From: a virus
Lineage: Duplodnaviria; Caudoviricetes
Length of the DNA stretch: 53,011 nt
Virus record (IMG/VR): IMGVR_UViG_3300011994_000001
Location: 1-53,011 of that record
Reading direction: 5' to 3' (one strand)
The notes under the pieces were generated by a model that was not told where the DNA came from, ran no database searches, and saw nothing but the letters and a program-made list of their open reading frames with translations. This document shows positions 17,348 through 36,011 of this stretch, piece by piece. A program made the position numbers and the translations under genes. Within the stretch, counting starts at the first letter, position 1, and the number at the start of each line of letters is the position of its first letter.

Positions 17348-19669
17348 ATGAAATCTCCGATAACTGTACTCAAGCCCGAGTATTCATACCTGAAGATGAC
17401 TCCTAACAATTCGATAAAGAATATTCATACGGACAAGATCGCTCTAGCAATAGGTTCTCTTCAAACGTCCTTCGCGGTAAGGATAACAGCGGGTTTTGCC
17501 CCGCCTTTTCTTTTCAAGCTTATTCCTTATCGTTGGTCTATTTCTGTTCCTGCTAAGACATCTTTCTATGTGTACCTCCATAACCAATCTGCTGAGTTCT
17601 ACTTCGTTGTTCCTACCCTCTCACTATCGATTATCAAAGAGAAGATCAGGTCTGTATGGCCCACGGTAACAATGTCTATTGTAGATCGTCTTCCGCTCCT
17701 CCCCGATGATTCTACCAAGTATTCTTTGTTATATACCCAAGAGGACGCCTTGTCTTTAGCGTCAAAGCGATCTGATAACGATTTGATAAACTCCTCATTG
17801 AATACTATCTCCTCGCTGGAAGAAGACGATGAGGCGGGAATATTCTACAACTTTATACCGACGTCTCAGAAAGGGTGGAGGGCTAACTATAAGAATACAA
17901 TAAGTAAGATTAAACAGAACCAGCCTACAGACAAGGAGAAGTTTAACCTATCAGACTTTAGGACTTATCTGTATATACTCAGGGTTCTATCATCCATACT
18001 ACAGTCTATATCAAACGATATATCAAACATATCTGCTTATAAAGTTACCAAGACAGCTACCAATTATGACGCTTATCCCCAGAAACTTAATGTATCCGAG
18101 GATACCCGCAAGAAGAACAACCAACACGTAGTTGATACTCAGATAGTTGTTATGTCCAAGTCCTCCTCACCGCTACGTCAACATAACAATGCTAAGTCAC
18201 TGGCTCAGAGCTTTTTGGTACTTAGTGAACCTGAGGGTGGAAACTCCCTTAGATACAAGAGATATCGCAAAAGTTTCAAACCGCTCGCATATTCTCTACC
18301 CGTCGAACGTAACAAGATGTCTACCTCTGAGTGTCAGAGCTTTATATCGTTACCAGGGAGAGAGCTGCTAGAGAGATTCCCTCATATACAGAAAACTGAT
18401 ACTCAAGAAACCCTAGTGCCTATTGACCTACGTCAAGGAGTTATGTGCATAGGTAAGAACAAGTACAGGGGTAGCGAACAAAAGGCGTACTTATCTACAG
18501 ATCAAGAGTACCAGCAGTTAACCCTGGTAGTTGTAGGACCTACCCGAGCGGGTAAAACTACGTTGATTGGATCTCTTGCACAGGACGCTATAAATAATCA
18601 AGAGTGCGTTATTATGTTTGACTTCGTTGAGAACTGCGAATCGTCCTCCGAGGTAGCCCAAAAGTTTACAAAAGACAAAACGCTAGTCATATCCTGTGCC
18701 GATATCGAGTGCCTGCAGGGGCTAGGTTATAATGAATCTGCTTCCGTTAGTAGTAACCCCCTAGATGTGTATATAACCGCTAAGAGACAGACTACGCAGC
18801 TTCTGGCATTAATTAATTCTATTAATACGGAGGATAAAGTACTGCCTCCTAAAATGGAGCGGTATCTTACCTGTGCGTCATTGATAACTTTCTGCCAAAA
18901 TGGCAGTATCAAGGATGTATTTGACGTATTGACTAATCACCTCGTAAGAGCGAGATACGTCAGACATAATAGCTCCGATCAAAAAGAGAACCTGGAGGAA
19001 TACGTTATGGGTCTTAGAGAGCTTGACGAAGTAGATAAGACTGGAGAGGTAACAGGAACCAAGTTCAGTGCTATAGCGGGCGTAATGGATAGACTTCAAA
19101 AGTTAAAGAGCAACCCTTATATGGAGCTTATGCTAAAGAAAGATACCCAGGGTAACCTAAACTTAATCGAGGAGATACAGAAGCCCCAGTTGATCGTATT
19201 ACAAATGCCCGAGAAGATGTTTGGGACAGATGAGGAACGAGACACGTACTGTATATATTGGATGACTAAGATATGGCTTGCCTTACAGTTACGAGCCGAT
19301 ATACTCAAGGATAAATCAACCCGTACCAAAGTCAATCTTTTTATCGATGAGCTGTATCAAGTACATCATACAGAGGAGTTTCTCAAAGAAAAGTTGTCCA
19401 GACTTGCTAAATTCCGCTTGAAACCAATTATCTCCTGCCACTATCTTAATCAAATCAAGATTATTCGCGACGAACTCCGATCTGCTAATGCGTCCTACAT
19501 GCTGATATCGGGTTGCGATAAGAAGAACTTCCAGGAATTAAAGGAGGAGCTGTACCCATTTGATACAGAGGATTTATTGTCGTTACCAAGATTTCATAGC
19601 ATGAACCTAATCAAGTCAAAAGGCGGGTACGAGCGGTTTATCACGGATTTGACGAATATTGGAAAATAA
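17348..19669 (+). CDS. FtsK/HerA-superfamily (VirB4/VirD4-like) ATPase
   Basis: GPTRAGKT Walker A, LFIDE Walker B, LAKFRLKPIISCHYLNQI. Confidence 0.75.
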   Translation: MKSPITVLKPEYSYLKMTPNNSIKNIHTDKIALAIGSLQTSFAVRITAGFAPPFLFKLIPYRWSISVPAKTSFYVYLHNQSAEFYFVVPTLSLSIIKEKIRSVWPTVTMSIVDRLPLLPDDSTKYSLLYTQEDALSLASKRSDNDLINSSLNTISSLEEDDEAGIFYNFIPTSQKGWRANYKNTISKIKQNQPTDKEKFNLSDFRTYLYILRVLSSILQSISNDISNISAYKVTKTATNYDAYPQKLNVSEDTRKKNNQHVVDTQIVVMSKSSSPLRQHNNAKSLAQSFLVLSEPEGGNSLRYKRYRKSFKPLAYSLPVERNKMSTSECQSFISLPGRELLERFPHIQKTDTQETLVPIDLRQGVMCIGKNKYRGSEQKAYLSTDQEYQQLTLVVVGPTRAGKTTLIGSLAQDAINNQECVIMFDFVENCESSSEVAQKFTKDKTLVISCADIECLQGLGYNESASVSSNPLDVYITAKRQTTQLLALINSINTEDKVLPPKMERYLTCASLITFCQNGSIKDVFDVLTNHLVRARYVRHNSSDQKENLEEYVMGLRELDEVDKTGEVTGTKFSAIAGVMDRLQKLKSNPYMELMLKKDTQGNLNLIEEIQKPQLIVLQMPEKMFGTDEERDTYCIYWMTKIWLALQLRADILKDKSTRTKVNLFIDELYQVHHTEEFLKEKLSRLAKFRLKPIISCHYLNQIKIIRDELRSANASYMLISGCDKKNFQELKEELYPFDTEDLLSLPRFHSMNLIKSKGGYERFITDLTNIGK

Positions 19670-21018: not shown

Positions 21019-21528
21019 ATGTTAATATGCGCGAGGGCTTATACAGGTAAACAGCAAAGGAGTATGATACAGCCAAAGATATTTTGTAACCTATCTGGGT
21101 GCTACTGCCAGTATACCGAATGGTCAAGAGGTACCTACGACCAAGCTGAATCTTGTATAGAGTGCCCGAGATACCTTGGTGAGGAAGAGCTTGATTATGC
21201 TGATGTAGCGTTACAGAAAAAGTGCAGACTTATTATGGAGGACGCAACAAGTTTAGTAGCCTCCCTTAACAGTAATCCTACGCCAAAGATAAAGCGACCA
21301 AGCTTTAACTCAGTTATCCAAGGAAACGCCGATAACTTGAGTGCGCTCACCGGAGAGCTTATGGCGTCAAAGTCTAAACAGCGGAAAGAAGAACACACAA
21401 AGGAGAAACTTAATGTGCAAGAGTTGAGGGAAGTACAAGATGCGGAGTTGTGCAAAGGAGAGTCAAGAAACTTCTACCCAACAAGGACTACCGCCAAAAG
21501 TCGTTACGCAGAGGGCGAGTATTCATGA
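21019..21528 (+). CDS. Hypothetical protein
   Basis: GAGGAGG RBS; ATGA-coupled to the downstream kinase gene. Confidence 0.55.
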   Translation: MLICARAYTGKQQRSMIQPKIFCNLSGCYCQYTEWSRGTYDQAESCIECPRYLGEEELDYADVALQKKCRLIMEDATSLVASLNSNPTPKIKRPSFNSVIQGNADNLSALTGELMASKSKQRKEEHTKEKLNVQELREVQDAELCKGESRNFYPTRTTAKSRYAEGEYS

Positions 21529-22517
21529 AGAATAGACCTGCGGATGTTCCTTATTGCGGGGTAAGAGAGGATAAGATCAAGAACGCAAAGCCCGTATTGA
21601 ACGAGACCAACTTCAAGTACTTGTTCGATTTCATAACGCGTAGGTATCGTATCCATAAAAAGAAAGACGTCAAGAAGTTACCCGCTCCGTGGACGAAAGA
21701 CCCGATACTGCGAGACTACAAGTTCACGAATGTTCGGAGAGAACACGACAGAGAATCTTTATGGCTTATCAAGAACATAGCCGAAAATGACTATCTTAGC
21801 TACGAAGACAAGCTGATGAATATTATCCTCTTTAGGATGTTTAACAAGTCGGACACCTCCTCAATAATCGGTCTGATACAATTCTCTACGTTTGATATTA
21901 TCAAGAAGAGTATCGAGGACAGGTTGAGACGGAAAGCGGAGAATACGCCTGACTATATATTCTTTACCAACGCCTTTCTTACCTGCGGTCTCAAAGTAGC
22001 TCTTGGGAATAACCCCGAAACTACTGACGAGTTTATGCCTATGAGGGTTATCAAGTTTATCGAGGTCTTGTACAAGGACGGTATCGTGGATAAGATCAAG
22101 AAAGCTAAAGATCAAAAAGCGGTCTTTGAGGTAGTCAAGAGCTACAAGGGGTTAGGAGAGTTTCTGAGCTATCAAATATTTGTAGATTTCACTTATATCC
22201 ACGACTTCCCATTCTCAGAGAATGAGTTTACAATATCGGGTCCAGGATGTATACGAGGGCTAGACAACGTCTTTGACGATAGGGACGGGATGACTCACGA
22301 CGAATGTTTATTCTGGTTACGGGATAACTTACACATGGAGTTCTTCGATAGAGGTTACAAATATGACCCTATCAAGCTATATAGCGACCTGCCGATGAGC
22401 GACAGGAGAACAAACGTAATGTCCTTGGAGAACATTCACTGTGAGTTGAGTAAGTATATCCGAGCGAGGAACGGCACGGGCGGTCCAAGAAACCGCTATA
22501 AACCGAGAGGATTATAA
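21525..22517 (+). CDS. 5-hmdU DNA kinase, helical type (aGPT-Pplase1 family)
   Basis: RYRI.KKK....P.PWTKDPIL..YKFTNVRRE.DR, LFRMFNK, GLGEFLSYQI..D, GPGC.RGL, EN..CELSKY. Confidence 0.88.
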   Translation: MKNRPADVPYCGVREDKIKNAKPVLNETNFKYLFDFITRRYRIHKKKDVKKLPAPWTKDPILRDYKFTNVRREHDRESLWLIKNIAENDYLSYEDKLMNIILFRMFNKSDTSSIIGLIQFSTFDIIKKSIEDRLRRKAENTPDYIFFTNAFLTCGLKVALGNNPETTDEFMPMRVIKFIEVLYKDGIVDKIKKAKDQKAVFEVVKSYKGLGEFLSYQIFVDFTYIHDFPFSENEFTISGPGCIRGLDNVFDDRDGMTHDECLFWLRDNLHMEFFDRGYKYDPIKLYSDLPMSDRRTNVMSLENIHCELSKYIRARNGTGGPRNRYKPRGL

Positions 22518-22645: not shown

Positions 22646-23119
22646 ATGAAAAGGGCAAAGTCTGCTATAAGTTACCTGCGTTTGGCTAGTTTCTATGCTA
22701 AAGAGAACTCAGGATGTTTAAAAGTTAAGGTAGGAGCGGTTATTGTAAAGAACGGTAAAGTTGTTGGTCTTGGAGCTAATCAAGCTGATCTAAACTTATG
22801 TTTGAGCGATAGAGGTTGCTTGCGTATAGAGAAGTATGGCGAGTCTTCCAAAGATCACCGACTTCCTGCCGATTGCAGGGCTGTACACTCCGAGGTCGAT
22901 GCTATCAGCTCTAGCCCCGTAGACCTAGAGGGAGCGACGATATATGTGACAAGATACCCCTGCGAATCTTGCGCCCGAGCTATTATATCTGCGGGTATAT
23001 CCAGAGTAGTCTACGGAAGGGAACAAAGTATAACGCCATATACGGACAGACTATTCGACTTCAACAATATTGAGGTATCTCACATAAGGGAGTACGCTGA
23101 AGAAGATGTTGTTGTATGA
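22646..23119 (+). CDS. dCMP deaminase
   Basis: S.C.K.KVGAVIVK, HSE and YPCESC zinc motifs. Confidence 0.9.
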   Translation: MKRAKSAISYLRLASFYAKENSGCLKVKVGAVIVKNGKVVGLGANQADLNLCLSDRGCLRIEKYGESSKDHRLPADCRAVHSEVDAISSSPVDLEGATIYVTRYPCESCARAIISAGISRVVYGREQSITPYTDRLFDFNNIEVSHIREYAEEDVVV

Positions 23120-23334
23120 AGGGCGGGAGGCATATGGGGCTAAACTCTGACGAGAAAATATGTAAGGTATGTGGCAAAATGTTTATCTTATTTGACGTTG
23201 CTAATTACGCTTACAAGATAGCGAGGATAAACGGAGCTCACGATTGGTACTGCGGGTATAGCCACTTTAGAATCGGTCAAAAAGAGCATGAGGCTAGAAT
23301 CAAGAAAAGCAGAGAGAGGAAGAGCAGAGTATGA
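23116..23334 (+). CDS. Hypothetical Zn-finger protein
   Basis: CKVCGK.F...WYCGY.H. Confidence 0.55.
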   Translation: MKGGRHMGLNSDEKICKVCGKMFILFDVANYAYKIARINGAHDWYCGYSHFRIGQKEHEARIKKSRERKSRV

Positions 23335-23759
23335 AAGACGCAGAAATGAAAGATATTCTTGTAAGAGCTCAAGAGGCATATGGATTCAAAAACCAAGTAT
23401 CGGTAGCAACGGAGGAGTTATGTGAGCTTGCTTGCGTACTATCTAAGTATGTACGATACCCAGATCACGATACCGCTTCTGAGGCACTCCGAGATAAGAT
23501 ACTGGACGAAGTAGCCGATGTTAATGTAATTCTAAATCACCTGTATATCATGTTCGGGTTCTCTTATGACGAGATAGTCAAAGCAATGGAGCCCAAACTC
23601 CTCAGATTAAAACGCTGGTTGGATACCAATTCTGAGTTCGTTCAAACTACCCGAGATAGAACGGTCAGAACTTGCGATAATTGCGCGTATACTATGACGG
23701 GAGACATAACGTGCATGAGTTGCGTAGACAAGAGTAAATGGCTTCACGTAGAGGGGTAA
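23331..23759 (+). CDS. MazG-like NTP pyrophosphohydrolase
   Basis: YG..NQ..VATEEL.EL...L.K...DEVADV. Confidence 0.8.
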   Translation: MKDAEMKDILVRAQEAYGFKNQVSVATEELCELACVLSKYVRYPDHDTASEALRDKILDEVADVNVILNHLYIMFGFSYDEIVKAMEPKLLRLKRWLDTNSEFVQTTRDRTVRTCDNCAYTMTGDITCMSCVDKSKWLHVEG

Positions 23760-28660: not shown

Positions 28661-29380
28661 ATGGCAAAGATTAAATTGGATTTTACAGGGGTAGAAAGCT
28701 ATATCAAGTGTGCTGAGGGAGAACATATCTGCGTACTCAAAGAGGTTGAGGAAGTCAAAGCCAAGTCTTCAGGAGCCGATATGCTCAAGTGTGTCTTTGA
28801 AGTATCCAAGGGTAGCTCTACGGGTGCGATCTTGTACGATAACTTCGTGTTAACTCAAAAGGCTTTATGGAAGCTCAAGGGGTTCTTGGAGATTATGGGA
28901 CAGAAGGTAGCAGACGGTAAGATGTCTCTTGACCTATCCAAATTAGTAGGACGAGCCTGTATTGTAAGCGTCAAATACGAAATGTACGAGGGTAAGGAAC
29001 AATCCCGAGTTGACTCGTATCGTAAACTTGAACTGGAACCTTCTGGGGACGAAGATGACGAGGACATCGATGACGAGGACGATGAAGAAGATGATGAGCC
29101 TGTAGAAACTCCTAAGCAAAAGAAAGCGCGTCTTGCGGCTGAGGCAGAAGCTAAGGCAAAAGAACTAGCCAAGAAGAAAGCCAAAAAGAAACCCGAGCCT
29201 GAGCCTGAAGATGAAGATGAAGATGAAGAGGAAGAAGATGACGAAGAACCTGCCGAGACGCCTAAGCAGAAAAAAGCTAGGGAGAAAGCAGAAGCTGAAG
29301 CCAAAGCTAAAAAGAAACCTAAGAAGAAACCTCCTGTCGAGGAAGATGAGGATGAGGAGTGGGACGAAGAGGACGAATAA
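28661..29380 (+). CDS. DUF669-type single-stranded DNA-binding protein with long acidic/basic tail
   Basis: LDFTGVE...EG.H...SSG..ML...F...DNF.L..KALWKLK. Confidence 0.8.
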   Translation: MAKIKLDFTGVESYIKCAEGEHICVLKEVEEVKAKSSGADMLKCVFEVSKGSSTGAILYDNFVLTQKALWKLKGFLEIMGQKVADGKMSLDLSKLVGRACIVSVKYEMYEGKEQSRVDSYRKLELEPSGDEDDEDIDDEDDEEDDEPVETPKQKKARLAAEAEAKAKELAKKKAKKKPEPEPEDEDEDEEEEDDEEPAETPKQKKAREKAEAEAKAKKKPKKKPPVEEDEDEEWDEEDE

Positions 29381-29396
29381 TCAAGGACTACTTGGG

Positions 29397-29421
29397 GGAG
29401 CGGTGACGCTCCTCTATTTTT
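29397..29421 (+). terminator. Intrinsic terminator
   Basis: GGAGCG-GTGA-CGCTCC then TCTATTTTT. Confidence 0.7.
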
Positions 29422-29431
29422 AAAATAAGTG

Positions 29432-29460
29432 TTTACTTTTTGAAGAAAGTATAGTATACT
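29432..29460 (+). promoter_or_regulatory. sigmaA-like promoter for the dehydrogenase-AADT-glycosyltransferase-HAD operon
   Basis: TTTACT-N17-TATACT. Confidence 0.75.
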
Positions 29461-29503
29461 ATTACTGTAGGGCGAATACACTAGTAAGTTGAGGAGGAGA
29501 GTT

Positions 29504-30505
29504 ATGTTAAATGTTAGATCCATCGAACACGGCAGAGGTACTATCCAGGGTATAAAATTTCTGATTGAGGGCAAGGATACGTTGGTAATTACCAGTCAAT
29601 CCGCTTGGTCATCGCTTAGAAAACTGTTGGCTTTTGGACCCGTAAATGTATTTTCAGCTACCTCTGTATCTCAGAAGAGTTTGGACGAGTTACTCGCTAT
29701 GTCTAAGAGGTTCAAGACCATTATCGGTATCGGGGGAGGTATGGTAATTGACTCAGCTAAGTACGTTGCTTGGATTACTGGAGCTAGACTTGTTCTTGTT
29801 CCTACTGTGTTATCAACTAACGCGTTTGCTACGGAAGCAATAGGCGTTCGTACCGAGGAAGGCAAAGTAGTGTATGTAGGTAACTCTCGTGCTGATAAGC
29901 TTATTGTAGACTTCGATCTGTTGAGAATGTCTCCCCCAGCGTTAAACTACTCAGGTACAGTAGACGTACTATCTTGCCATACAGCTACCCGAGATTGGGA
30001 GATAGCGGTTGAAGACGGAGTACTGAGTCACCCCTTAGACCTTCAGGCAGGTCGCAAAGCCCGCCAATTAGTGAACCGTATAGATAACTACTCTGAAGAC
30101 ATTAGAGAGCTTACGGACATCGGTTTGAAGGTCTTATTAGACTGCTTGCTAGATACCGCTGAGATATGTCAACCGCTAGGACACTACCGAGCGGAGGAAG
30201 GATCAGAACACTTCTTATTTTACGCTATCGAGAAGATACTCAAAAGACCGTTTATCCACGGTCAGATAGTAGGCCTGGGAATACAGATTATGAGTAGTCT
30301 ACAGGTAAACAGTACCAACGATATATCCTGTGTTATGAAGGATATCGGTCTTAATATAACCCCTAAGTCAATGGGTATTACCAAGGACGTTCTTAGACAA
30401 GCTTTGGTTGATCTTAGGACGTATCCTCAACCCTGGCATACGATTATTGATAGGGGTATATCAGATAGTTTTATCGAGCAAACGTTGTATTATTTGGAAT
30501 TCTAG
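29504..30505 (+). CDS. Glycerol-1-phosphate dehydrogenase-like (EgsA/AraM, DHQS/Fe-ADH superfamily)
   Basis: GIGGGMVIDSAKY, VPTVLST, SG..DVLS..TA..DW..A, GSEH, HGQIVGLG; ATG 29504 after GAGGAGG. Confidence 0.82.
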   Translation: MLNVRSIEHGRGTIQGIKFLIEGKDTLVITSQSAWSSLRKLLAFGPVNVFSATSVSQKSLDELLAMSKRFKTIIGIGGGMVIDSAKYVAWITGARLVLVPTVLSTNAFATEAIGVRTEEGKVVYVGNSRADKLIVDFDLLRMSPPALNYSGTVDVLSCHTATRDWEIAVEDGVLSHPLDLQAGRKARQLVNRIDNYSEDIRELTDIGLKVLLDCLLDTAEICQPLGHYRAEEGSEHFLFYAIEKILKRPFIHGQIVGLGIQIMSSLQVNSTNDISCVMKDIGLNITPKSMGITKDVLRQALVDLRTYPQPWHTIIDRGISDSFIEQTLYYLEF

Positions 30506-30516
30506 GAGGTTGTGTT

Positions 30517-31470
30517 ATGGATCTGTATAATATACACGGGGATACGGGCGGGGATTGGAGAATGAACAAGTTCAAAGAGTATTGCGACGGAGATATTGAC
30601 GACACGCTTGCTCCTATGAACTGGTTACTCAAAAAGGCGGGGGCTAATCGAGGAGATAGAATATGGGCGTCATTTCTCTATTCTACCTGCTATTGCCTAG
30701 GAACAACGATGTTTATGTATAACGAGTTATTCTATGGTACGCTGACACCCAGGAAATTAGACGAATTCTGGGAGGACTACAAAAAAGATCTGGTATTCCA
30801 AACAGACCGTAAGTACGCGAAGAATCTAAACTGGTTTGTGCCTATGGTAGTTCAGTTTATGGCTAAGACCAAGAGAGACCCAGAAAAGTACTTCAGACCG
30901 CTTCTAACAGGTACGCCCGAGGAAGTATACCGTAAGATGTACAAAGAGGTTTCAGGATGGAAGTTCTTTGGACGATTCTCCACGATACTATTCCTCAAGA
31001 CCCTCATATCTATTCTCCCTATCGAAATGGACTTTGATACAGAGTACGATTGGGCTAATGGAGAAACCACTACCGCGGGGGCTCTTATCTTACACTACCG
31101 CGACGAAGAAGCCAAACAGTTTCTCCTAGATCATAAGATCACGCCTGACATGAAGAAGTATTTTGACGAGTTACTGGAAGAGTGTAAAGGCAAGATAGCG
31201 GGTAATATGCTCCATACCTCATCCGCTTTTTGTAGTCACTTTAAATTATACAAAGAGCAAAGGTACCTTGGATATTACGTTGATCGAGGTCAACACGAAC
31301 TTAGAACTCTACAAAAGAACCTACCTCAAGCTCACGAGCTGTGGGACCGAATATGGATAGCCCGAAGAAGGACTATTGATTGGAAGTATCTTGGGGAGAT
31401 CAACGGTTGGGCTGGTACAAGACCTGAGAAGTGTCATGACTTTATGAAAACTGGAAGGATGTATGAATAA
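30517..31470 (+). CDS. Amino acid:DNA transferase (AADT, aGPT-Pplase2 family)
   Basis: DID..L, W..FLY..CY...T, L.FQTDRKY, FGRFS...FL, C..K...RY.GYY.DR. Confidence 0.82.
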   Translation: MDLYNIHGDTGGDWRMNKFKEYCDGDIDDTLAPMNWLLKKAGANRGDRIWASFLYSTCYCLGTTMFMYNELFYGTLTPRKLDEFWEDYKKDLVFQTDRKYAKNLNWFVPMVVQFMAKTKRDPEKYFRPLLTGTPEEVYRKMYKEVSGWKFFGRFSTILFLKTLISILPIEMDFDTEYDWANGETTTAGALILHYRDEEAKQFLLDHKITPDMKKYFDELLEECKGKIAGNMLHTSSAFCSHFKLYKEQRYLGYYVDRGQHELRTLQKNLPQAHELWDRIWIARRRTIDWKYLGEINGWAGTRPEKCHDFMKTGRMYE

Positions 31471-31643
31471 TGACAGACGCTATAAAAGATACCAAAATTA
31501 ATCTTTGTTCTACTTGCGCGTTTGAGATTCCTTCTTGCGAAGCTAGTCCTGAAGATATTGAGTTCGGCGACGGTCTGAGTAATGATAATGTAATACTTTG
31601 TAAGCATTATGAGCTGGAAGAAGGAATTGTTTATGAGCAATAA
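31470..31643 (+). CDS. Small Cys-rich protein (57 aa, not in ORF track)
   Basis: TAATG coupling to AADT; NLCSTC.FEIPSC...IEFGDG..NDNVILC..Y. Confidence 0.65.
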   Translation: MTDAIKDTKINLCSTCAFEIPSCEASPEDIEFGDGLSNDNVILCKHYELEEGIVYEQ

Positions 31644-32601
31644 TGAATGGCAAGAAGGCAAGCCTTATCGAACTGAGAAAATTAGCAGAAAGGTAGCGGG
31701 ACGAAAGCTTGAGATTCCAATTTGTATCCCGTCCTACGGTAGACCCGACTCAGCTATGTTCAAGATTTTAGAGAAAGAACCCGATCTGCCTATGGTTTTC
31801 TTTATCCGAGAGGAGCAGAAAGAGCTGTATGCAGGATTGAAGGGCAAAGCCCGTATAGTTACTCTAAAGAACGTGGATAACATAGGACAGACCCGAGCTA
31901 AGATTGTAAAGTGGGCTCATAAGCAGGGTTACGAGAATATATTTATGTTTGACGATAAAGTAACCGCTGTAAATGCCCTCGCTCCTAGACTTAGCAGGAA
32001 CGATAATTGGTCGATGAGCAAGTTTACTACGACGATGTATCAAGCTCTTCAAGTTTGGGAATACCTTATCAGAAAGTACAAACCCTGCATGTCAGGAGGT
32101 CTCCACAAAGGATTCAGTTTCTCCCCAGGTAACATCAACGCTGAGCCTGAGATAGCCCCGGGTATATGGTGCGCTATACAACTTAACGTCGATATGTTGT
32201 CTGAGAATGATATTAACTACCGAGACAGTAATATATACGGTCACGAGGATAACATAATGGAGATAGAGGTTATGCAGAAGCGTCTAAAGCATATTTGCTT
32301 CAAGGATATCGAGTTTGATAACATACCTTCCTCCGACAAGTATACGGGCGGGATTCAGGATACGTGCCCCGAGAGCGAGACTAGACTGGAACGGGTAAGT
32401 AGACTATCTGATCTTGTAGAGAAGTTCGTAGGCAAGGGTCACCCTGGAATAATATTTTATACTTGGAAAGACGGAGCGAGATATGTGCGCATGAATTGGA
32501 AATACTGGAGAAAGCATTACTCCGAAGAACCTAAATTGACTAAGAAACAAATCGATCGTTTTAACGTATTGAAATTGTCGGAGGTATCCAAGGATGAGTA
32601 G
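31633..32601 (+). CDS. GT-A fold DNA glycosyltransferase (TET/J-associated, TAGT-like)
   Basis: ICIPSYGRP, IGQTR..I, FMFDD, HED motifs. Confidence 0.75.
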   Translation: MSNNEWQEGKPYRTEKISRKVAGRKLEIPICIPSYGRPDSAMFKILEKEPDLPMVFFIREEQKELYAGLKGKARIVTLKNVDNIGQTRAKIVKWAHKQGYENIFMFDDKVTAVNALAPRLSRNDNWSMSKFTTTMYQALQVWEYLIRKYKPCMSGGLHKGFSFSPGNINAEPEIAPGIWCAIQLNVDMLSENDINYRDSNIYGHEDNIMEIEVMQKRLKHICFKDIEFDNIPSSDKYTGGIQDTCPESETRLERVSRLSDLVEKFVGKGHPGIIFYTWKDGARYVRMNWKYWRKHYSEEPKLTKKQIDRFNVLKLSEVSKDE

Positions 32602-32992
32602 AATATTGGATCAAGCAGAGTACGATTCTCTCCCTAAAATTGCGGCGGTAGACTTCGATGGAACCCTGGCTATTGTAAAAAACTATCGAGGAACTGGCGT
32701 TGCTAATCGCCTAGTAATGGATAGGGTCAAGAGACTGCAGAAAGAGGGCTGGAAGCTTATCCTATGGACCTGTAGAGACGATGAGAACGAGGACATGGAG
32801 TTGACGTCTGCGGTACTATTCTGTGCAAAACACGGGCTATTCTTCGATGCGGTCAACGAGAATATCAAGGAAGTTCAAGACCTTATGGAAGGAGATACGC
32901 GAAAGATATATGCTAACGTGTACATTGACGATAAGTCAATAGTAGACTGGGATAAAATATTACCTTTACTTTTAGAGGAAAGAGTAGTATAA
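32594..32992 (+). CDS. HAD-superfamily phosphatase (copy 1)
   Basis: AVDFDGTL, ILWTCR, FDAVNEN, RK..A.VYIDDK. Confidence 0.88.
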   Translation: MSRILDQAEYDSLPKIAAVDFDGTLAIVKNYRGTGVANRLVMDRVKRLQKEGWKLILWTCRDDENEDMELTSAVLFCAKHGLFFDAVNENIKEVQDLMEGDTRKIYANVYIDDKSIVDWDKILPLLLEERVV

Positions 32993-32993
32993 T
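32965..32993 (+). promoter_or_regulatory. sigmaA-like promoter embedded in the HAD gene 3' end
   Basis: TTTACT-N17-TATAAT. Confidence 0.7.
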
Positions 32994-33036: not shown

Positions 33037-33654
33037 ATGAAACTACTTGTAAATATACGCGGGACAAACGGAGCGGGAAAATCCACGATACCTATGGCTA
33101 TGCTAGACGATCCAAAGATGCACGTTGTAGGATGCGGGTACAAGGCTGAGAAGCCCTGTGCCCCGTGGCTAACTGTATTTCCTACCTACGGATGGGTTGC
33201 CTTGGGTACGTACCGAGCTAAGACGGGCGGGATGGATACTATGTCGACCAACGCTGATATAGCCTTTGCTCTAGCTACCGCTTGGGATAGATACCCAGAG
33301 AGAGATATACTAATGGAGGGTATCATAGCCTCAACGATTAAGTCCACTTATGCCGAGCTTTTTGGTAATTACCAGTCTATGGTAGACGCGGAGGAAGTTA
33401 CCCCGAGGAAGATCGTAATTATGTCGTTTGTACCGCCCTTGGAGGTATGCCTATCCCGAGTTCAGGAGCGTAACGGGGGAAAACCTGTTAAAGAGGACGC
33501 AATAGCTGGTAAGTGGAGAACGGTAGACCGAAACGTGCAGTACTTCAAAGATATGGGATTTACATCCTTGCGGATAGATAACTCCAATATCAAGAAGGAA
33601 AGTATGTTCAAGAACTTCTTGCGAACTTGTGATAAGTACCGAGAGGAGGACTAG
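33037..33654 (+). CDS. P-loop kinase, 5-hmdU DNA kinase-like
   Basis: NIRGTNGAGKST, LG.Y....GG.DT, MEG, PLEVCL.RV.ERNG. Confidence 0.82.
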   Translation: MKLLVNIRGTNGAGKSTIPMAMLDDPKMHVVGCGYKAEKPCAPWLTVFPTYGWVALGTYRAKTGGMDTMSTNADIAFALATAWDRYPERDILMEGIIASTIKSTYAELFGNYQSMVDAEEVTPRKIVIMSFVPPLEVCLSRVQERNGGKPVKEDAIAGKWRTVDRNVQYFKDMGFTSLRIDNSNIKKESMFKNFLRTCDKYREED

Positions 33655-33874
33655 ACTTGAGAGTTTGTTCTAACTGTACGCGCTCTTGGTATTGCGAATA
33701 TGCTACTAACCAGATAATATGCTTTAAATACGAGTCAACTCGTAAGTACCGTGTGTAAGCACGAATGGTCCTCTCTTGGAGGTAACCGACCTAAACGCTG
33801 TATACTCTGCGGAGAGTACGAGCAGAAGCCTAAAAACAACTTCCATATAGGTAATAAGAGGAGGAGAGTAATAC

Positions 33875-34282
33875 ATGATAGCCTACCAAGAAACTCCCGA
33901 GCAACAGACGCGAGTAGAAGCCCAAGCACTAGAGGAGCTAGCTCTTACCATGATTAGTCAATTTGAAAAGAAGAATGTTGCGTACGGCAACGCTTTTGGT
34001 AATCAGTTTCAGAAGTACGGTCCCATAGCAGGTCTTCAAAGGCTAGCTGATAAGTTCTCCCGTATTGAAGCTCTTATGCTAGGAGCTCAGAACGGAGTTC
34101 CAGATGAGAGCTTGGAGGATACGCTAATGGATAGTGCTTGCTACGCTCTTATGGTTATCTACGAGCTACGGAGAAAGAAGAAGCTTGAGGAAGAAGATTC
34201 CTTTGTTCCAAACCGCGCTAAACAACCTCCCAAGCCCGCTAAACAACCTTGGGTGGAGAGAATGGAAAACGGCGAACTGTAG
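33875..34282 (+). CDS. DUF1599 / nucleotide-modification-associated domain protein
   Basis: KKN.AYGNAF...RL.DK..RI...ESLEDTL.D.A.YALM. Confidence 0.8.
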   Translation: MIAYQETPEQQTRVEAQALEELALTMISQFEKKNVAYGNAFGNQFQKYGPIAGLQRLADKFSRIEALMLGAQNGVPDESLEDTLMDSACYALMVIYELRRKKKLEEEDSFVPNRAKQPPKPAKQPWVERMENGEL

Positions 34283-34304: not shown

Positions 34305-35009
34305 ATGGGGTATTTAATTGCTAATAACGCTACTCAAGCTTGGGAAAGTTTGTATTATCAACTAAAAAATCAAGCTAGAAACGGGTTTTTACAACCGTCC
34401 CGAGCGGGAAATGTAGTAGGAGAAATCATAAACGCTGTAACAGTAATCAAGAACCCTCGCCAGGGTATCGTAGAATCCAAGATAAGAAATATGTCTATAA
34501 AATACGCTCTTGGAGAGTTACTTTGGTATATGTCGGGCAGTAACCGCTTGAGCGATATCTCTCCTTACTCTAAAGCTTGGGAAGGTCTATCAGACGATGG
34601 GGAGACGGTAAACTCAGCGTATGGGTACAGAATAGGTTCTATGTTTGGATTTGATCAGTACTCCTACGTGAGAGATATGCTACACAGAGACCCTTTATCG
34701 CGTCAGGCTATTATCCATATTAAAGACCCTAGTGAGAAGATAACTAAAGACACTCCTTGTACCCTGTCACTCCAATACCTCTTGCGGGACGGAAAACTGC
34801 ACGCTACCACGGTAATGCGATCAAACGATATTTGGCTTGGGTTCCCTTATGACGTATTCGCTTTTACCTCTCTACAGGTGATGATGGCTATGGAGCTAGG
34901 GGTAGACGTGGGAGAGTATACCCATATAGCTGGATCGCTACACTTGTACGAACGAGATTTGAAAGGGGCTGTAAACGTTGGAACTACACAAGATAGCGAT
35001 AAAAGTTGA
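34305..35009 (+). CDS. Thymidylate-synthase-family pyrimidine (hydroxy)methylase, dCMP-type Asp
   Basis: YALGELLWY, SDDG..VNSAYG.R, SRQA, DTPCT (catalytic Cys), MRSNDIWLGFPYD, GSLHLY. Confidence 0.88.
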   Translation: MGYLIANNATQAWESLYYQLKNQARNGFLQPSRAGNVVGEIINAVTVIKNPRQGIVESKIRNMSIKYALGELLWYMSGSNRLSDISPYSKAWEGLSDDGETVNSAYGYRIGSMFGFDQYSYVRDMLHRDPLSRQAIIHIKDPSEKITKDTPCTLSLQYLLRDGKLHATTVMRSNDIWLGFPYDVFAFTSLQVMMAMELGVDVGEYTHIAGSLHLYERDLKGAVNVGTTQDSDKS

Positions 35010-35313
35010 AGGCAGAAAAGGAGATAAGAACTGGGTTCACTTCTGCTATATCCCGCCCGAGCTAAAGGACGAGTTTGACTCCAAAGTTGAGGCGGACCCT
35101 AGATGGGTTATTAAATGGGCAAACGAGGATTTTGGTATGGGCATAGGCGAAGTTATGACCGAGATAGAACTGGATCAACTCCGAGAGCTTATCAAGGAAC
35201 GGTATCAACGATTGTACCCTGATCTTTATATCGAAAGTCAGACCGATAATCAAGGTTGGGTACGAGTTTGGATGATATCTAATATGAGGAGCGAGATCGC
35301 CAAGCGCGGTTAA
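34978..35313 (+). CDS. Hypothetical protein
   Basis: TTG start after AAAGGGG; overlaps the end of the synthase gene. Confidence 0.5.
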   Translation: MELHKIAIKVEGRKGDKNWVHFCYIPPELKDEFDSKVEADPRWVIKWANEDFGMGIGEVMTEIELDQLRELIKERYQRLYPDLYIESQTDNQGWVRVWMISNMRSEIAKRG

Positions 35314-35363: not shown

Positions 35364-36011
35364 ATGACATGCGGTAATACTATTGATTGTAGAGACTGTG
35401 AGGATAGATATAAATGCGGGCCAGCTGTGGGTATGATAGGAGATTACACAACTAAAGAGTATGAAAAAATGAAAGCCCGTAAATCGTCTGTTAGTACTGA
35501 TATCGATTATTCAAGACGCTGCGGAGAGTTTGGACATTCTGATGCTATGAATAGGGCTAGTTGCGTATCTTGCAGTATGCACGCGATAGAGTTGTACAAA
35601 GCTTGCTTAAATAAAAAACACGCTGGGGTTACCCCGAAAACGTACAAAGATAAACCCAAAGTTGAGAAACAACATATGGATAAGCTACCAAGTATATTAG
35701 CGGTAGACTTCGATGGAACTCTCGTTCACGATGACTATCCCTTGATTGGTAAGGCTAGAACGGAGGTATTTGACCTTGTAAGAACGTATATCCACAGAGG
35801 TTGGAAAGTTATCTTATGGACTTGTAGGGATCACGAATGGTTAGCTAGTGCCGTTGACTATTGTAGGAACCAGGGTCTAGAGTTTGACGCTGTTAACGAG
35901 AATATCAAAGAGGTCAAGGAAATGTTCGACAACGATACCCGTAAGGTGTTTGCTAATATTTATATTGACGATAAATTTTTGTTTGTAGAAGGTGTTAATA
36001 ATGCCTCTTGA
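35364..36011 (+). CDS. Cys-rich N-domain fused to HAD phosphatase (copy 2)
   Basis: CRDC..C, CVSC; AVDFDGTL, ILWTCRD, FDAVNENIKEV, YIDDK. Confidence 0.85.
   Translation: MTCGNTIDCRDCEDRYKCGPAVGMIGDYTTKEYEKMKARKSSVSTDIDYSRRCGEFGHSDAMNRASCVSCSMHAIELYKACLNKKHAGVTPKTYKDKPKVEKQHMDKLPSILAVDFDGTLVHDDYPLIGKARTEVFDLVRTYIHRGWKVILWTCRDHEWLASAVDYCRNQGLEFDAVNENIKEVKEMFDNDTRKVFANIYIDDKFLFVEGVNNAS

Follow-up and report, generated by a model that had tools for sequence, protein, structure and literature searches.

The locus studied here raises the question of what a relative of sn-glycerol-1-phosphate dehydrogenase (G1PDH) does among the DNA-modification genes of a virus. The window, that is, the whole stretch of DNA that was analysed, is the IMG/VR record IMGVR_UViG_3300011994_000001, a whole genome of an uncultured virus, 53,011 bp long and rated as 100% complete. 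A preliminary description had reported a run of five open reading frames (ORFs) at 29432-32992, encoding a G1PDH-like dehydrogenase, an amino acid:DNA transferase (AADT), a small Cys-containing protein, a TAGT-like glycosyltransferase and a HAD phosphatase (HAD1). All five ORFs were found on the + strand, closely spaced at 29.4-33.0 kb, and the family calls for the dehydrogenase, the AADT, the glycosyltransferase and the HAD protein were upheld by profile and PDB searches. The distances between successive ORFs are 11, -1, -11 and -8 nt, followed by 44 nt to the gene of a P-loop kinase. We tentatively propose that the dehydrogenase supplies a polyol or polyol phosphate as the nucleophile of a kinase/AADT pathway of DNA modification.

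According to this proposal, the replication module holds a modular cassette that would hypermodify a 5-hydroxymethylpyrimidine in DNA. Judged by homology, the nucleotide pool would be remodelled by a hydroxymethylase of the thymidylate synthase (TS) family, a dCMP deaminase and a MazG-like enzyme, the hydroxymethyl group in DNA would be phosphorylated by two families of kinase, and an AADT of the ViI clade would exchange the phosphate for a nucleophile. The dehydrogenase, using NAD(P)H, would convert a keto precursor into this nucleophile, which might be a small polyol or its phosphate, in the simplest case glycerol or glycerol phosphate derived from dihydroxyacetone phosphate (DHAP) or dihydroxyacetone. 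A HAD phosphatase, which in a relative forms one protein with the dehydrogenase and whose part may be taken by HAD1 here, would set the phosphorylation state of the nucleophile, and the AADT would attach the polyol compound via an ether bond. The glycosyltransferase would form an independent module, acting most likely on hydroxymethyl bases; action on the adduct is a possibility for which there is no support. Given the cytosine-type Asp of the hydroxymethylase, the chemical handle may be 5-hydroxymethylcytosine (5-hmC) rather than 5-hydroxymethyluracil (5-hmU). Throughout the cassette, we infer function beyond family membership from sequence.

The dehydrogenase gene (29504-30505, + strand; 333 aa, clade I of the family tree described below) was identified by Pfam, PDB and alignment searches. 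It has two candidate start codons, at 29489 and 29504, and the ATG at 29504 is favoured by an AGGAGG box upstream and by the homologues, which begin with MLNI. The protein matched Pfam Fe-ADH_2 at 6.8e-12, and its best PDB matches were 3ce9, annotated as 'glycerol dehydrogenase' (1.7e-23), and the G1PDH structures 5fb3 and 4rgq (about 3e-16). The Atlas model (pTM 0.91) gave a TM score of 0.93 to Fe-ADH_2 clusters. The DHQS-like fold, the glycine-rich NAD motif and the metal ligands are all found in the alignments to 3ce9 and 5fb3: all 52 invariant alignment columns are kept in the window protein, among them GGGG, the Asp of GTVDVLS and the His residues of SEH and IHG, and this Asp/His/His set aligns with the metal ligands of the solved relatives. 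With its full length and every invariant residue, the dehydrogenase looks active. It shares the Fe-ADH_2/DHQS-like family, the NAD motif and the Asp/His/His ligands with the G1PDH EgsA/AraM and with GldA, but the identity is about 25-30% over the aligned stretches (estimated by eye), ST[DN]AF stands in place of SHDG, and the neighbouring genes are different.

The protein belongs to an uncharacterised family of about 340 aa with 603 matches; identity is 37-53% for the best 120 listed. Where G1PDH has the substrate-site motif PTxASHDG, the window dehydrogenase has PTVLSTNAFATE and the family ST[DN]AFATE. The family motifs are PT(I/V)IST(D/N)AFATEA and RAEEGSEHF. The preliminary description was therefore correct about the window in noting STNA for SHDG and EGSEH for SGSEH; these departures are family-wide among the 603 homologues, however, and are not a peculiarity of the phage. 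The enzyme is not a G1PDH in the strict sense.

The AADT gene (30517-31470, + strand; 317 aa) was recognised by PF18724, the aGPT-Pplase family (32.7 bits, cut-off 26.2), and assigned to the ViI-like clade by hhalign. The profile of the window's AADT clade matched gp204 of the ViI-like Kuttervirus Guerrero with a probability of 99% (E 7e-18, 273 columns) and showed no similarity to M6 gp51 (hhalign probability 0.5%). The search of the AADT alignment against the PDB found no AADT structure, its sole match being an unrelated one at E 0.8, so that similarity to PaMx11 gp46 is not shown by sequence. According to the main text of Lee 2022 (PMC8989533), ViI gp247 yields 5-O-serinylthymidine by hydroxyl attack, and M6 gp51 yields an N-linked glycinylthymidine. 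By sequence, the window AADT falls in the ether-forming ViI clade, whose characterised member uses a hydroxyl nucleophile, and an ether-forming AADT next to a polyol-making enzyme would make a coherent pair. In the same main text, the word 'glycerol' does not appear, and the single use of 'dehydrogenase' refers to the flavin enzyme gp47. Among the papers listed by the literature searches, no title or abstract opening pointed to an enzyme of the Fe-ADH or G1PDH type as part of DNA hypermodification; supplementary neighbourhood tables may bear on this point.

The relatives of both proteins were then compared for linkage. Single-protein scans of viral contigs with the dehydrogenase, the AADT and the glycosyltransferase returned nothing, and the clade I dehydrogenase alignment also returned nothing. 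The AADT alignment recovered 565 viral relatives, and 80 of these AADT-bearing loci were examined. One of them, L163, contains a dehydrogenase-like gene. Its record, G001 (47,351 bp, 100% complete), and the window are collinear across the stretch that runs from the primase gene to that of the SNF2 helicase, with protein identities of 50% for the helical-type kinase (Kin_hel), 54% for PolA, 58% for AAA_24, 38% for the AADT, 49% for the P-loop kinase, 55% for the TS homologue and 55% for a second HAD protein, HAD2. In the slot between the DUF669-like gene and the AADT gene, G001 encodes a 542-aa protein with an N-terminal Fe-ADH_2 domain and a C-terminal HAD-IA hydrolase domain, and the stop codon of this fusion overlaps the start of the AADT gene by 4 nt. 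A quick maximum-likelihood tree, built from 79 members of the family, placed the dehydrogenases of the window and L163 in two separate deep clades. Since they occupy the same slot next to the AADT, two different dehydrogenases fill one position in related phages. The window dehydrogenase was the sister of P0016 in this tree (SH-aLRT 96), and the closest relative of the window AADT was P0122, with 62% identity. For P0016 and P0122 alike, the longest contig listed is 16,090 bp, and the source is the same. From these comparisons, we think that the dehydrogenase is tied to the AADT, the pair being present in two to three phages.

The fusion found in G001 is not a single case. When the L163 fusion was compared with 1.84 billion protein representatives, 1,294 matches were obtained. 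Among ten long homologues examined, seven were fusions of Fe-ADH_2 and HAD_2 in either domain order; two contained a cytidylyl/adenylyl-transferase-like domain (one of them also counted among the seven), one a NADAR domain and one a PIG-L domain. The preliminary description's connection of a HAD phosphatase with the dehydrogenase was borne out by the G001/L163 fusion and by these seven fused homologues. In the viral contig L270, the dehydrogenase and a HAD protein are encoded by adjacent genes; the upstream genes showed no AADT by hhalign and no PDB match, and the contig ends just downstream of the pair. The fused HAD domains resemble hexitol phosphatase, hydrolases of the beta-phosphoglucomutase type and the HAD end of mannitol-1-phosphate dehydrogenase/phosphatase (NCBIfam NF046057, 2e-12 to 2e-22). 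NF046057 also combines a dehydrogenase with HAD-IA in an architecture producing a free polyol, but its dehydrogenase has another fold and the analogy is one of architecture only, the window dehydrogenase itself being unfused. By this analogy, the fusion architecture supports the conversion of a keto-sugar phosphate into a free polyol. Fusion or adjacency with HAD thus points to a small-molecule role for the dehydrogenase, in which a polyol or polyol phosphate would be made by reduction and dephosphorylation or phosphotransfer. Synteny and gene fusion therefore support both links of the dehydrogenase, to the AADT and to a phosphatase. P0200, P0240, P0177 and P0228 are clade II dehydrogenases in larger fusions: one type joins HAD, a cytidylyl/adenylyl-transferase-like domain and the dehydrogenase (about 1030 aa), another NADAR and the dehydrogenase, and a third the dehydrogenase and PIG-L. 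Such larger fusions suggest nucleoside diphosphate (NDP)-polyol or related pathways.

Several observations weigh against a dehydrogenase that feeds the AADT with a polyol or its phosphate. The score against the NCBIfam G1PDH equivalog NF002022 was 111.8 bits, with a cut-off of 413, and the SHDG motif is absent. The family has 277 relatives in species-representative genomes and 416 in metagenomes, and 80 loci of each kind were kept. A tblastn search of these 160 loci with eleven further proteins of the window (AADT, glycosyltransferase, both HADs, both kinases, TS, DUF1599, deaminase, PolA and the Cys ORF) gave no match. From the AADT side, L163 was the only one of the 80 viral loci with a dehydrogenase, and the AADT-bearing loci L162 and L249 have none. 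Dehydrogenase-like genes are also present in two unverified 'Bacteriophage sp.' records, in neither case with an AADT nearby. P0016 and P0122 probably come from a third phage with the pair, a judgement made from the equal 16,090-bp values and nothing else. The HAD-IA domain of the fusions is absent from the window, where HAD1 duplicates a core gene. Finally, the neighbours of clade I homologues (permeases, GH30, ceramidase-like proteins, M20/Opp) point to a catabolic, perhaps non-phosphorylated substrate and not to DHAP. The preliminary description had named a lack of linkage between dehydrogenase homologues and AADT as a reason to give up the pathway and, taken literally, such a lack is what the 160 genome and metagenome loci showed. 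We read the missing link as the phage having recruited a cellular enzyme. The suggestion in the preliminary description that the dehydrogenase provides the AADT nucleophile stands as far as the synteny in G001/L163 and the ViI clade of the AADT go, and is left unsupported by these 160 other loci.

The cellular neighbourhoods were counted in 59 genome loci, 21 of the 80 having been dropped beforehand, and each recurrent neighbour was annotated from one representative. An APC-type permease was found in 21 of the 59, a GH30 hydrolase and a 668-aa protein with no Pfam match in 13 each, a ceramidase-like protein in 10, a GFO/IDH/MocA oxidoreductase and a DegT aminotransferase in 8 each, and a PIG-L deacetylase in 7. 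The clade I homologues, from Planctomycetota, Verrucomicrobiota, Acidobacteriota, Poribacteria, Bacteroidota and others, often lie directly 3' of the APC permease, GH30 or ceramidase-like gene. In L082, which belongs to the nearer subclade of the window, the dehydrogenase gene lies downstream of those of an M20 peptidase and Opp-type permeases. The clade I family is apparently catabolic, and these neighbourhoods hint at other, perhaps amino-alcohol-like, substrates.

Some of this evidence would also fit a dehydrogenase that is an auxiliary metabolic gene, for example of host redox or glycerol metabolism, residing in a variable hot spot, in which case the DNA would bear known marks only, namely an amino-acid adduct and a glycosylated hydroxymethyl base. 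Besides the 160 other homologue loci lacking a link to AADT and the putative phage records with a dehydrogenase-like gene and no AADT, the slot from the DUF669-like gene to the TS gene is highly variable among relatives. We nevertheless consider this explanation rather unlikely, because two dehydrogenase subfamilies stand in the same place by the AADT in two phages, one of them with a stop/start overlap, and a probable third pair adds to them. Moreover, the other cassette genes scanned match nucleotide- or DNA-modification families, with the exception of the 57-aa Cys ORF and a 111-aa ORF at 34978-35313, which had no match in the family scans. These scans covered about 35 ORFs from 13.2 to 43.8 kb, the arms at 1-13 kb and 44-53 kb lying outside.

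The dehydrogenase could instead tailor an adduct that is already bound to DNA. The AADT would add an amino acid such as serine, and the dehydrogenase would oxidise or reduce its side chain, in the manner of the pyridoxal phosphate (PLP), radical-SAM and flavin enzymes of ViI, M6 and PaMx11. The preliminary description had stated that none of these tailoring enzymes is visible, and indeed no PLP, radical-SAM or flavin family was found among the ORFs scanned, an absence that we count in favour of the preferred pathway. AADT relatives without a dehydrogenase exist, and the slot upstream of the AADT holds in L249 a second glycosyltransferase, which is a DNA-acting enzyme. The neighbours of AADT in known systems are tailoring enzymes, for example M6 gp51-gp53 in the main text of Lee 2022. 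On the other hand, many homologues are joined to HAD-IA small-molecule phosphatases, by fusion or as neighbouring genes, and this speaks for a small molecule as the substrate; the characterised relatives found are all small-molecule enzymes (G1PDH, glycerol dehydrogenase and 3-dehydroquinate (DHQ) synthase). In addition, the dehydrogenase fold buries its active site between two domains, which counts against work on a DNA-bound adduct. We regard tailoring by the dehydrogenase as improbable.

A further alternative, which we hold to be very unlikely, is that the dehydrogenase and HAD make a product that does not serve as the AADT nucleophile. This product would be glycerol-2-phosphate or an NDP-activated polyol, transferred in the manner of teichoic acids to a sugar or hydroxyl that the DNA already bears. 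In P0200 and P0240, the dehydrogenase is indeed part of a fusion with a cytidylyl/adenylyl-transferase-like domain, in one case together with HAD, and the DNA of SP-15 and Carin-5 is described as bearing phosphorylated, glycosylated side chains, but no nucleotidyltransferase or glycerophosphotransferase match was found among the window ORFs scanned, and L163 has the dehydrogenase-HAD fusion with no glycosyltransferase.

The preferred pathway, with the dehydrogenase as the source of a polyol nucleophile, leaves the glycosyltransferase and HAD1 to be placed. The glycosyltransferase gene (31633-32601, + strand, with an alternative start at 31609; 322 aa) is assigned to the TAGT-like GT-A DNA glycosyltransferases by phrog_842 and motifs, with a PF20691 score near the cut-off. 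Its hmmscan score with TAGT PF20691 was 25.7 bits, just under the cut-off of 27.5, although the precomputed library Pfam lists PF20691 for the protein; the phrog_842 match was 1e-9, and the relative in L162 reached 41.1 bits with Pfam TAGT. The active-site motifs R..DD(D)..ED are present: in the alignment, R37, D107-D108 and D206 are invariant, and E205 is found in at least 90% of the rows. An alignment of 13 relatives recovered five viral loci. This motif set has been described, and direct glycosylation of a hydroxymethyl base proposed, for phage GT-A enzymes (bioRxiv 2023.12.21.572611, main article).

The presence of each module in the related records was determined by whole-record tblastn. 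G007 (46 kb, 100% complete) has the TS homologue, deaminase, MazG-like protein, glycosyltransferase and HAD2 and lacks both kinases, the AADT and the dehydrogenase; G005 (61 kb, with terminal repeats) has this set with Kin_hel and DUF1599 in addition and lacks the P-loop kinase, AADT and dehydrogenase. L162, on record G002 (40 kb, 100% complete), has the AADT, P-loop kinase, glycosyltransferase, a dTMP-kinase-like gene, TS and HAD and lacks the dehydrogenase. L249, on record G004 (29 kb, 55% complete), has a second TAGT-like glycosyltransferase, the AADT, glycosyltransferase, P-loop kinase, TS and HAD2, with no dehydrogenase in the locus. The second glycosyltransferase of L249 (L249:3-908) lies upstream of the AADT, in the place of the window's dehydrogenase, and is cut by the contig start. 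In L250, at G005:C1:9701-10768 of the complete 61-kb relative, Kin_hel is 44-48% identical, and there is no P-loop kinase and no AADT. Across L163, L162, L249, L250 and L252 and the records G001, G002, G005 and G007, the slot from the DUF669-like gene to the TS gene forms a variable cassette, observed as glycosyltransferase only; Kin_hel and glycosyltransferase; AADT, kinase and glycosyltransferase; glycosyltransferase, AADT, glycosyltransferase and kinase; or dehydrogenase-HAD, AADT and kinase. By its gene content, the cassette is combinatorial within a small phage lineage.

Since the glycosyltransferase is present in complete relatives without AADT, P-loop kinase or dehydrogenase, it should act without the AADT, and it probably glycosylates the hydroxymethyl base directly. 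The idea that it adds a sugar to the adduct was not supported, given its occurrence in G005 and G007. A similar result was obtained for HAD1. This small capless phosphatase-like protein (32594-32992, + strand; 132 aa) matched the BT0820 family NF046079 at 1.5e-22 (80.4 bits, with a cut-off of 165) and PDB 2obb at 2e-12, and contains the DFDGT motif. It is specific to the window and 53% identical to HAD2 (35364-36011, + strand), which consists of a Cys-rich N-terminus and a BT0820-like HAD and is the conserved copy, present close to the TS gene in all the relatives that were compared. The preliminary description had a HAD enzyme dephosphorylate the adduct, which found no support, HAD1 being a paralogue of HAD2 and HAD2 being kept near the TS gene even in relatives without dehydrogenase and AADT. 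An adduct role of HAD1 is a guess, and it may take the part of the fused HAD-IA; for HAD2, a nucleotide-pool role is at least as likely as an adduct role. Phage dTMPases in phages with 5-hydroxymethyldeoxyuridine (hmdU) are noted in the main text of Lee 2022.

The nearby genes named in the preliminary description, namely two kinase families, a TS homologue, a dCMP deaminase, MazG and DUF1599, were all confirmed by family searches. The P-loop 5-hydroxymethylpyrimidine DNA kinase HMUDK_HMUD1 (33037-33654, + strand; PF18748, 9.6e-24) and the helical-type 5-hmdU DNA kinase HMUDK_hel, the Kin_hel above (21450-22517, + strand; PF18723, 5e-68), both scored above the cut-off. The dCMP deaminase is encoded at 22646-23119 (+ strand; PF00383, 1.7e-17) and the MazG-like NTP pyrophosphohydrolase at 23331-23759 (+ strand; phrog_2245, 9.4e-16). 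The DUF1599-like 'nucleotide modification associated domain 1' protein (33875-34282, + strand) gave a Pfam value of 0.002, below the cut-off, and matched phrog_1485 at 1.1e-22.

The TS homologue (34305-35009, + strand) is a pyrimidine hydroxymethylase of the TS family (2.2e-27), and its best PDB match was the CMP 5-hydroxymethylase MilA (1.1e-31), bacterial TS following at 7e-21. Where Bacillus subtilis ThyA has Asn in PFN, the window protein has Asp in PYD (RSNDIWLGFPYDVF), as do MilA and T4 gp42. All seven lineage members examined have this Asp (the window, L163, L162, L249, L250, L252 and Agathobaculum phage AB434P2), and Asn is found in the four hmdU-type phages compared (SP-10, the ViI-like Guerrero, LysYB1 and M6). 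The residue, Asn177 in Escherichia coli TS and Asp179 in T4 gp42, presumably sets the preference for uracil or cytosine. Under this rule, the cytosine-type Asp predicts specificity for dCMP and 5-hydroxymethyl-dCMP (5-hm-dCMP) as the product, and the modified base may be 5-hmC, not 5-hmU. This Asp had been overlooked in the preliminary description. Agathobaculum phage AB434P2 (L254, OP172633.1), from a gut Clostridia host, has the closest TS homologue among cultured phages (58% identical), which is annotated as dUMP hydroxymethyltransferase, yet has Asp.

Either 5-hmC is present in DNA and is acted on by the kinases and the AADT, or the phage deaminase converts 5-hm-dCMP to 5-hm-dUMP. Kinase/AADT action on 5-hmC has been raised for TET contigs in Burke 2021 (PMC8256090), where no demonstration was found, supplements aside. 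Among more specific versions of the pathway, one to which we give little credence would have 5-hmC made before replication, part of it converted by the kinases and AADT into ether-linked glyceryl or phosphoglyceryl cytosine with a nucleophile from the dehydrogenase and HAD, and the remaining 5-hmC glycosylated, relatives swapping the modules as an arms-race toolkit. If true, hypermodification of the AADT type would be seen here for the first time on cytosine, and also for the first time with a side chain that is a polyol and not an amino acid.

The cassette resembles several known systems in part. With the kinase/AADT thymidine systems (ViI, M6, PaMx11, SP10 and PhiW-14 type), the window shares a 5-hydroxymethyl DNA kinase and an AADT, and the dUMP-type Asn of those systems is absent from its TS homologue. 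As outlined in Lee 2018 and the main text of Lee 2022, the ViI pathway to 5-(2-aminoethoxy)methyl-2'-deoxyuridine (5-NeOmdU) has in common with the window a hydroxymethylase, a P-loop DNA kinase, an AADT of the same clade with an O-linked ether product, and a post-replicative route via a phosphorylated hydroxymethyl group. The window differs in having no PLP decarboxylase among the ORFs scanned and, beside the AADT, a G1PDH-like dehydrogenase (and HAD) instead; it adds a helical kinase and a GT-A glycosyltransferase, and its hydroxymethylase has Asp in place of the Asn of ViI-like phages, M6, SP-10 and LysYB1. The glucosyl-5-hmC system of T4 shares an Asp-type hydroxymethylase, a dCMP deaminase, an NTP pyrophosphohydrolase and a DNA glycosyltransferase, which is exactly the set of the relative G007. 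The T4 DNA glucosyltransferases are GT-B enzymes, whereas that of the window is TAGT-like GT-A, and the window adds kinases, AADT and dehydrogenase. The phage GT-A glycosyltransferases linked to 5mYOX/ThyS (Burke 2021; bioRxiv 2023.12.21.572611) are also TAGT-like with R..DD(D)..ED and lie beside a TS homologue and a dCMP deaminase. The window operon, by contrast, unites glycosyltransferase, AADT and dehydrogenase, a combination not found in these two articles, supplements aside. The dihydroxypentyl-uracil systems of SP-15, YerA41 and Carin-5 were rejected as relatives; their gene sets are described as of nucleotide-sugar/teichoic type, with no AADT or DNA kinase mentioned in those descriptions.

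The characterised AADT pathways all attach an amino acid or a polyamine to 5-hmdU and then trim it. If our proposal is true, natural DNA base chemistry would extend to polyol ethers, AADT would be shown to take non-amino-acid nucleophiles, and the resulting DNA base would belong to a kind that has yet to be described. If the Asp-type hydroxymethylase means 5-hmC, the logic of kinase and AADT would extend from thymine to cytosine. The phage lineage provides natural 'knock-in' and 'knock-out' variants for each module, so that the module roles are directly testable, and such enzymes might be used to label DNA at specific sites and to study restriction evasion.

Regulatory signals around the cassette were also inspected. 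A terminator-like hairpin at 29393-29416 (+ strand; a stem of 10 pairs, 6 of them G-C, with a T run behind it, by consensus match only) lies downstream of the DUF669-like gene and forms the upstream edge of the cassette. The preliminary description had placed a promoter at 29432; a promoter-like site, TTTACT-17-TATACT, does exist at 29432-29460 (+ strand) with 9 of 12 consensus matches, but such sites are slightly above chance in the 7.9-kb scanned region (21 observed, 14.7 +/- 3.6 expected), and it is weak evidence for a promoter. Another promoter-like site, at 32965-32993, lies ahead of the P-loop kinase gene. The operon gave no nucleotide match by blastn against phages.

The 57-aa ORF with four Cys (CxxC...C...C; 31470-31643, + strand) spans the gap between the AADT and glycosyltransferase genes, its start and stop overlapping its neighbours. 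It is a candidate gene, with no family match and no tblastn relative in the 240 fetched loci. More small Cys-rich ORFs or extensions with CxxC pairs and no family matches are present in the module at 33657-33758, at 33751-33957 and in the N-terminus of 35364-36011. Farther upstream, a 773-aa ORF (17348-19669) showed a weak match only, to AAA_14 (2.2e-5, below the cut-off). The DUF669-like protein (phrog_3724; 28661-29380) has a long repetitive tail rich in Asp, Glu and Lys, and a spurious Ser-rich ORF of 239 aa is present on the opposite strand.

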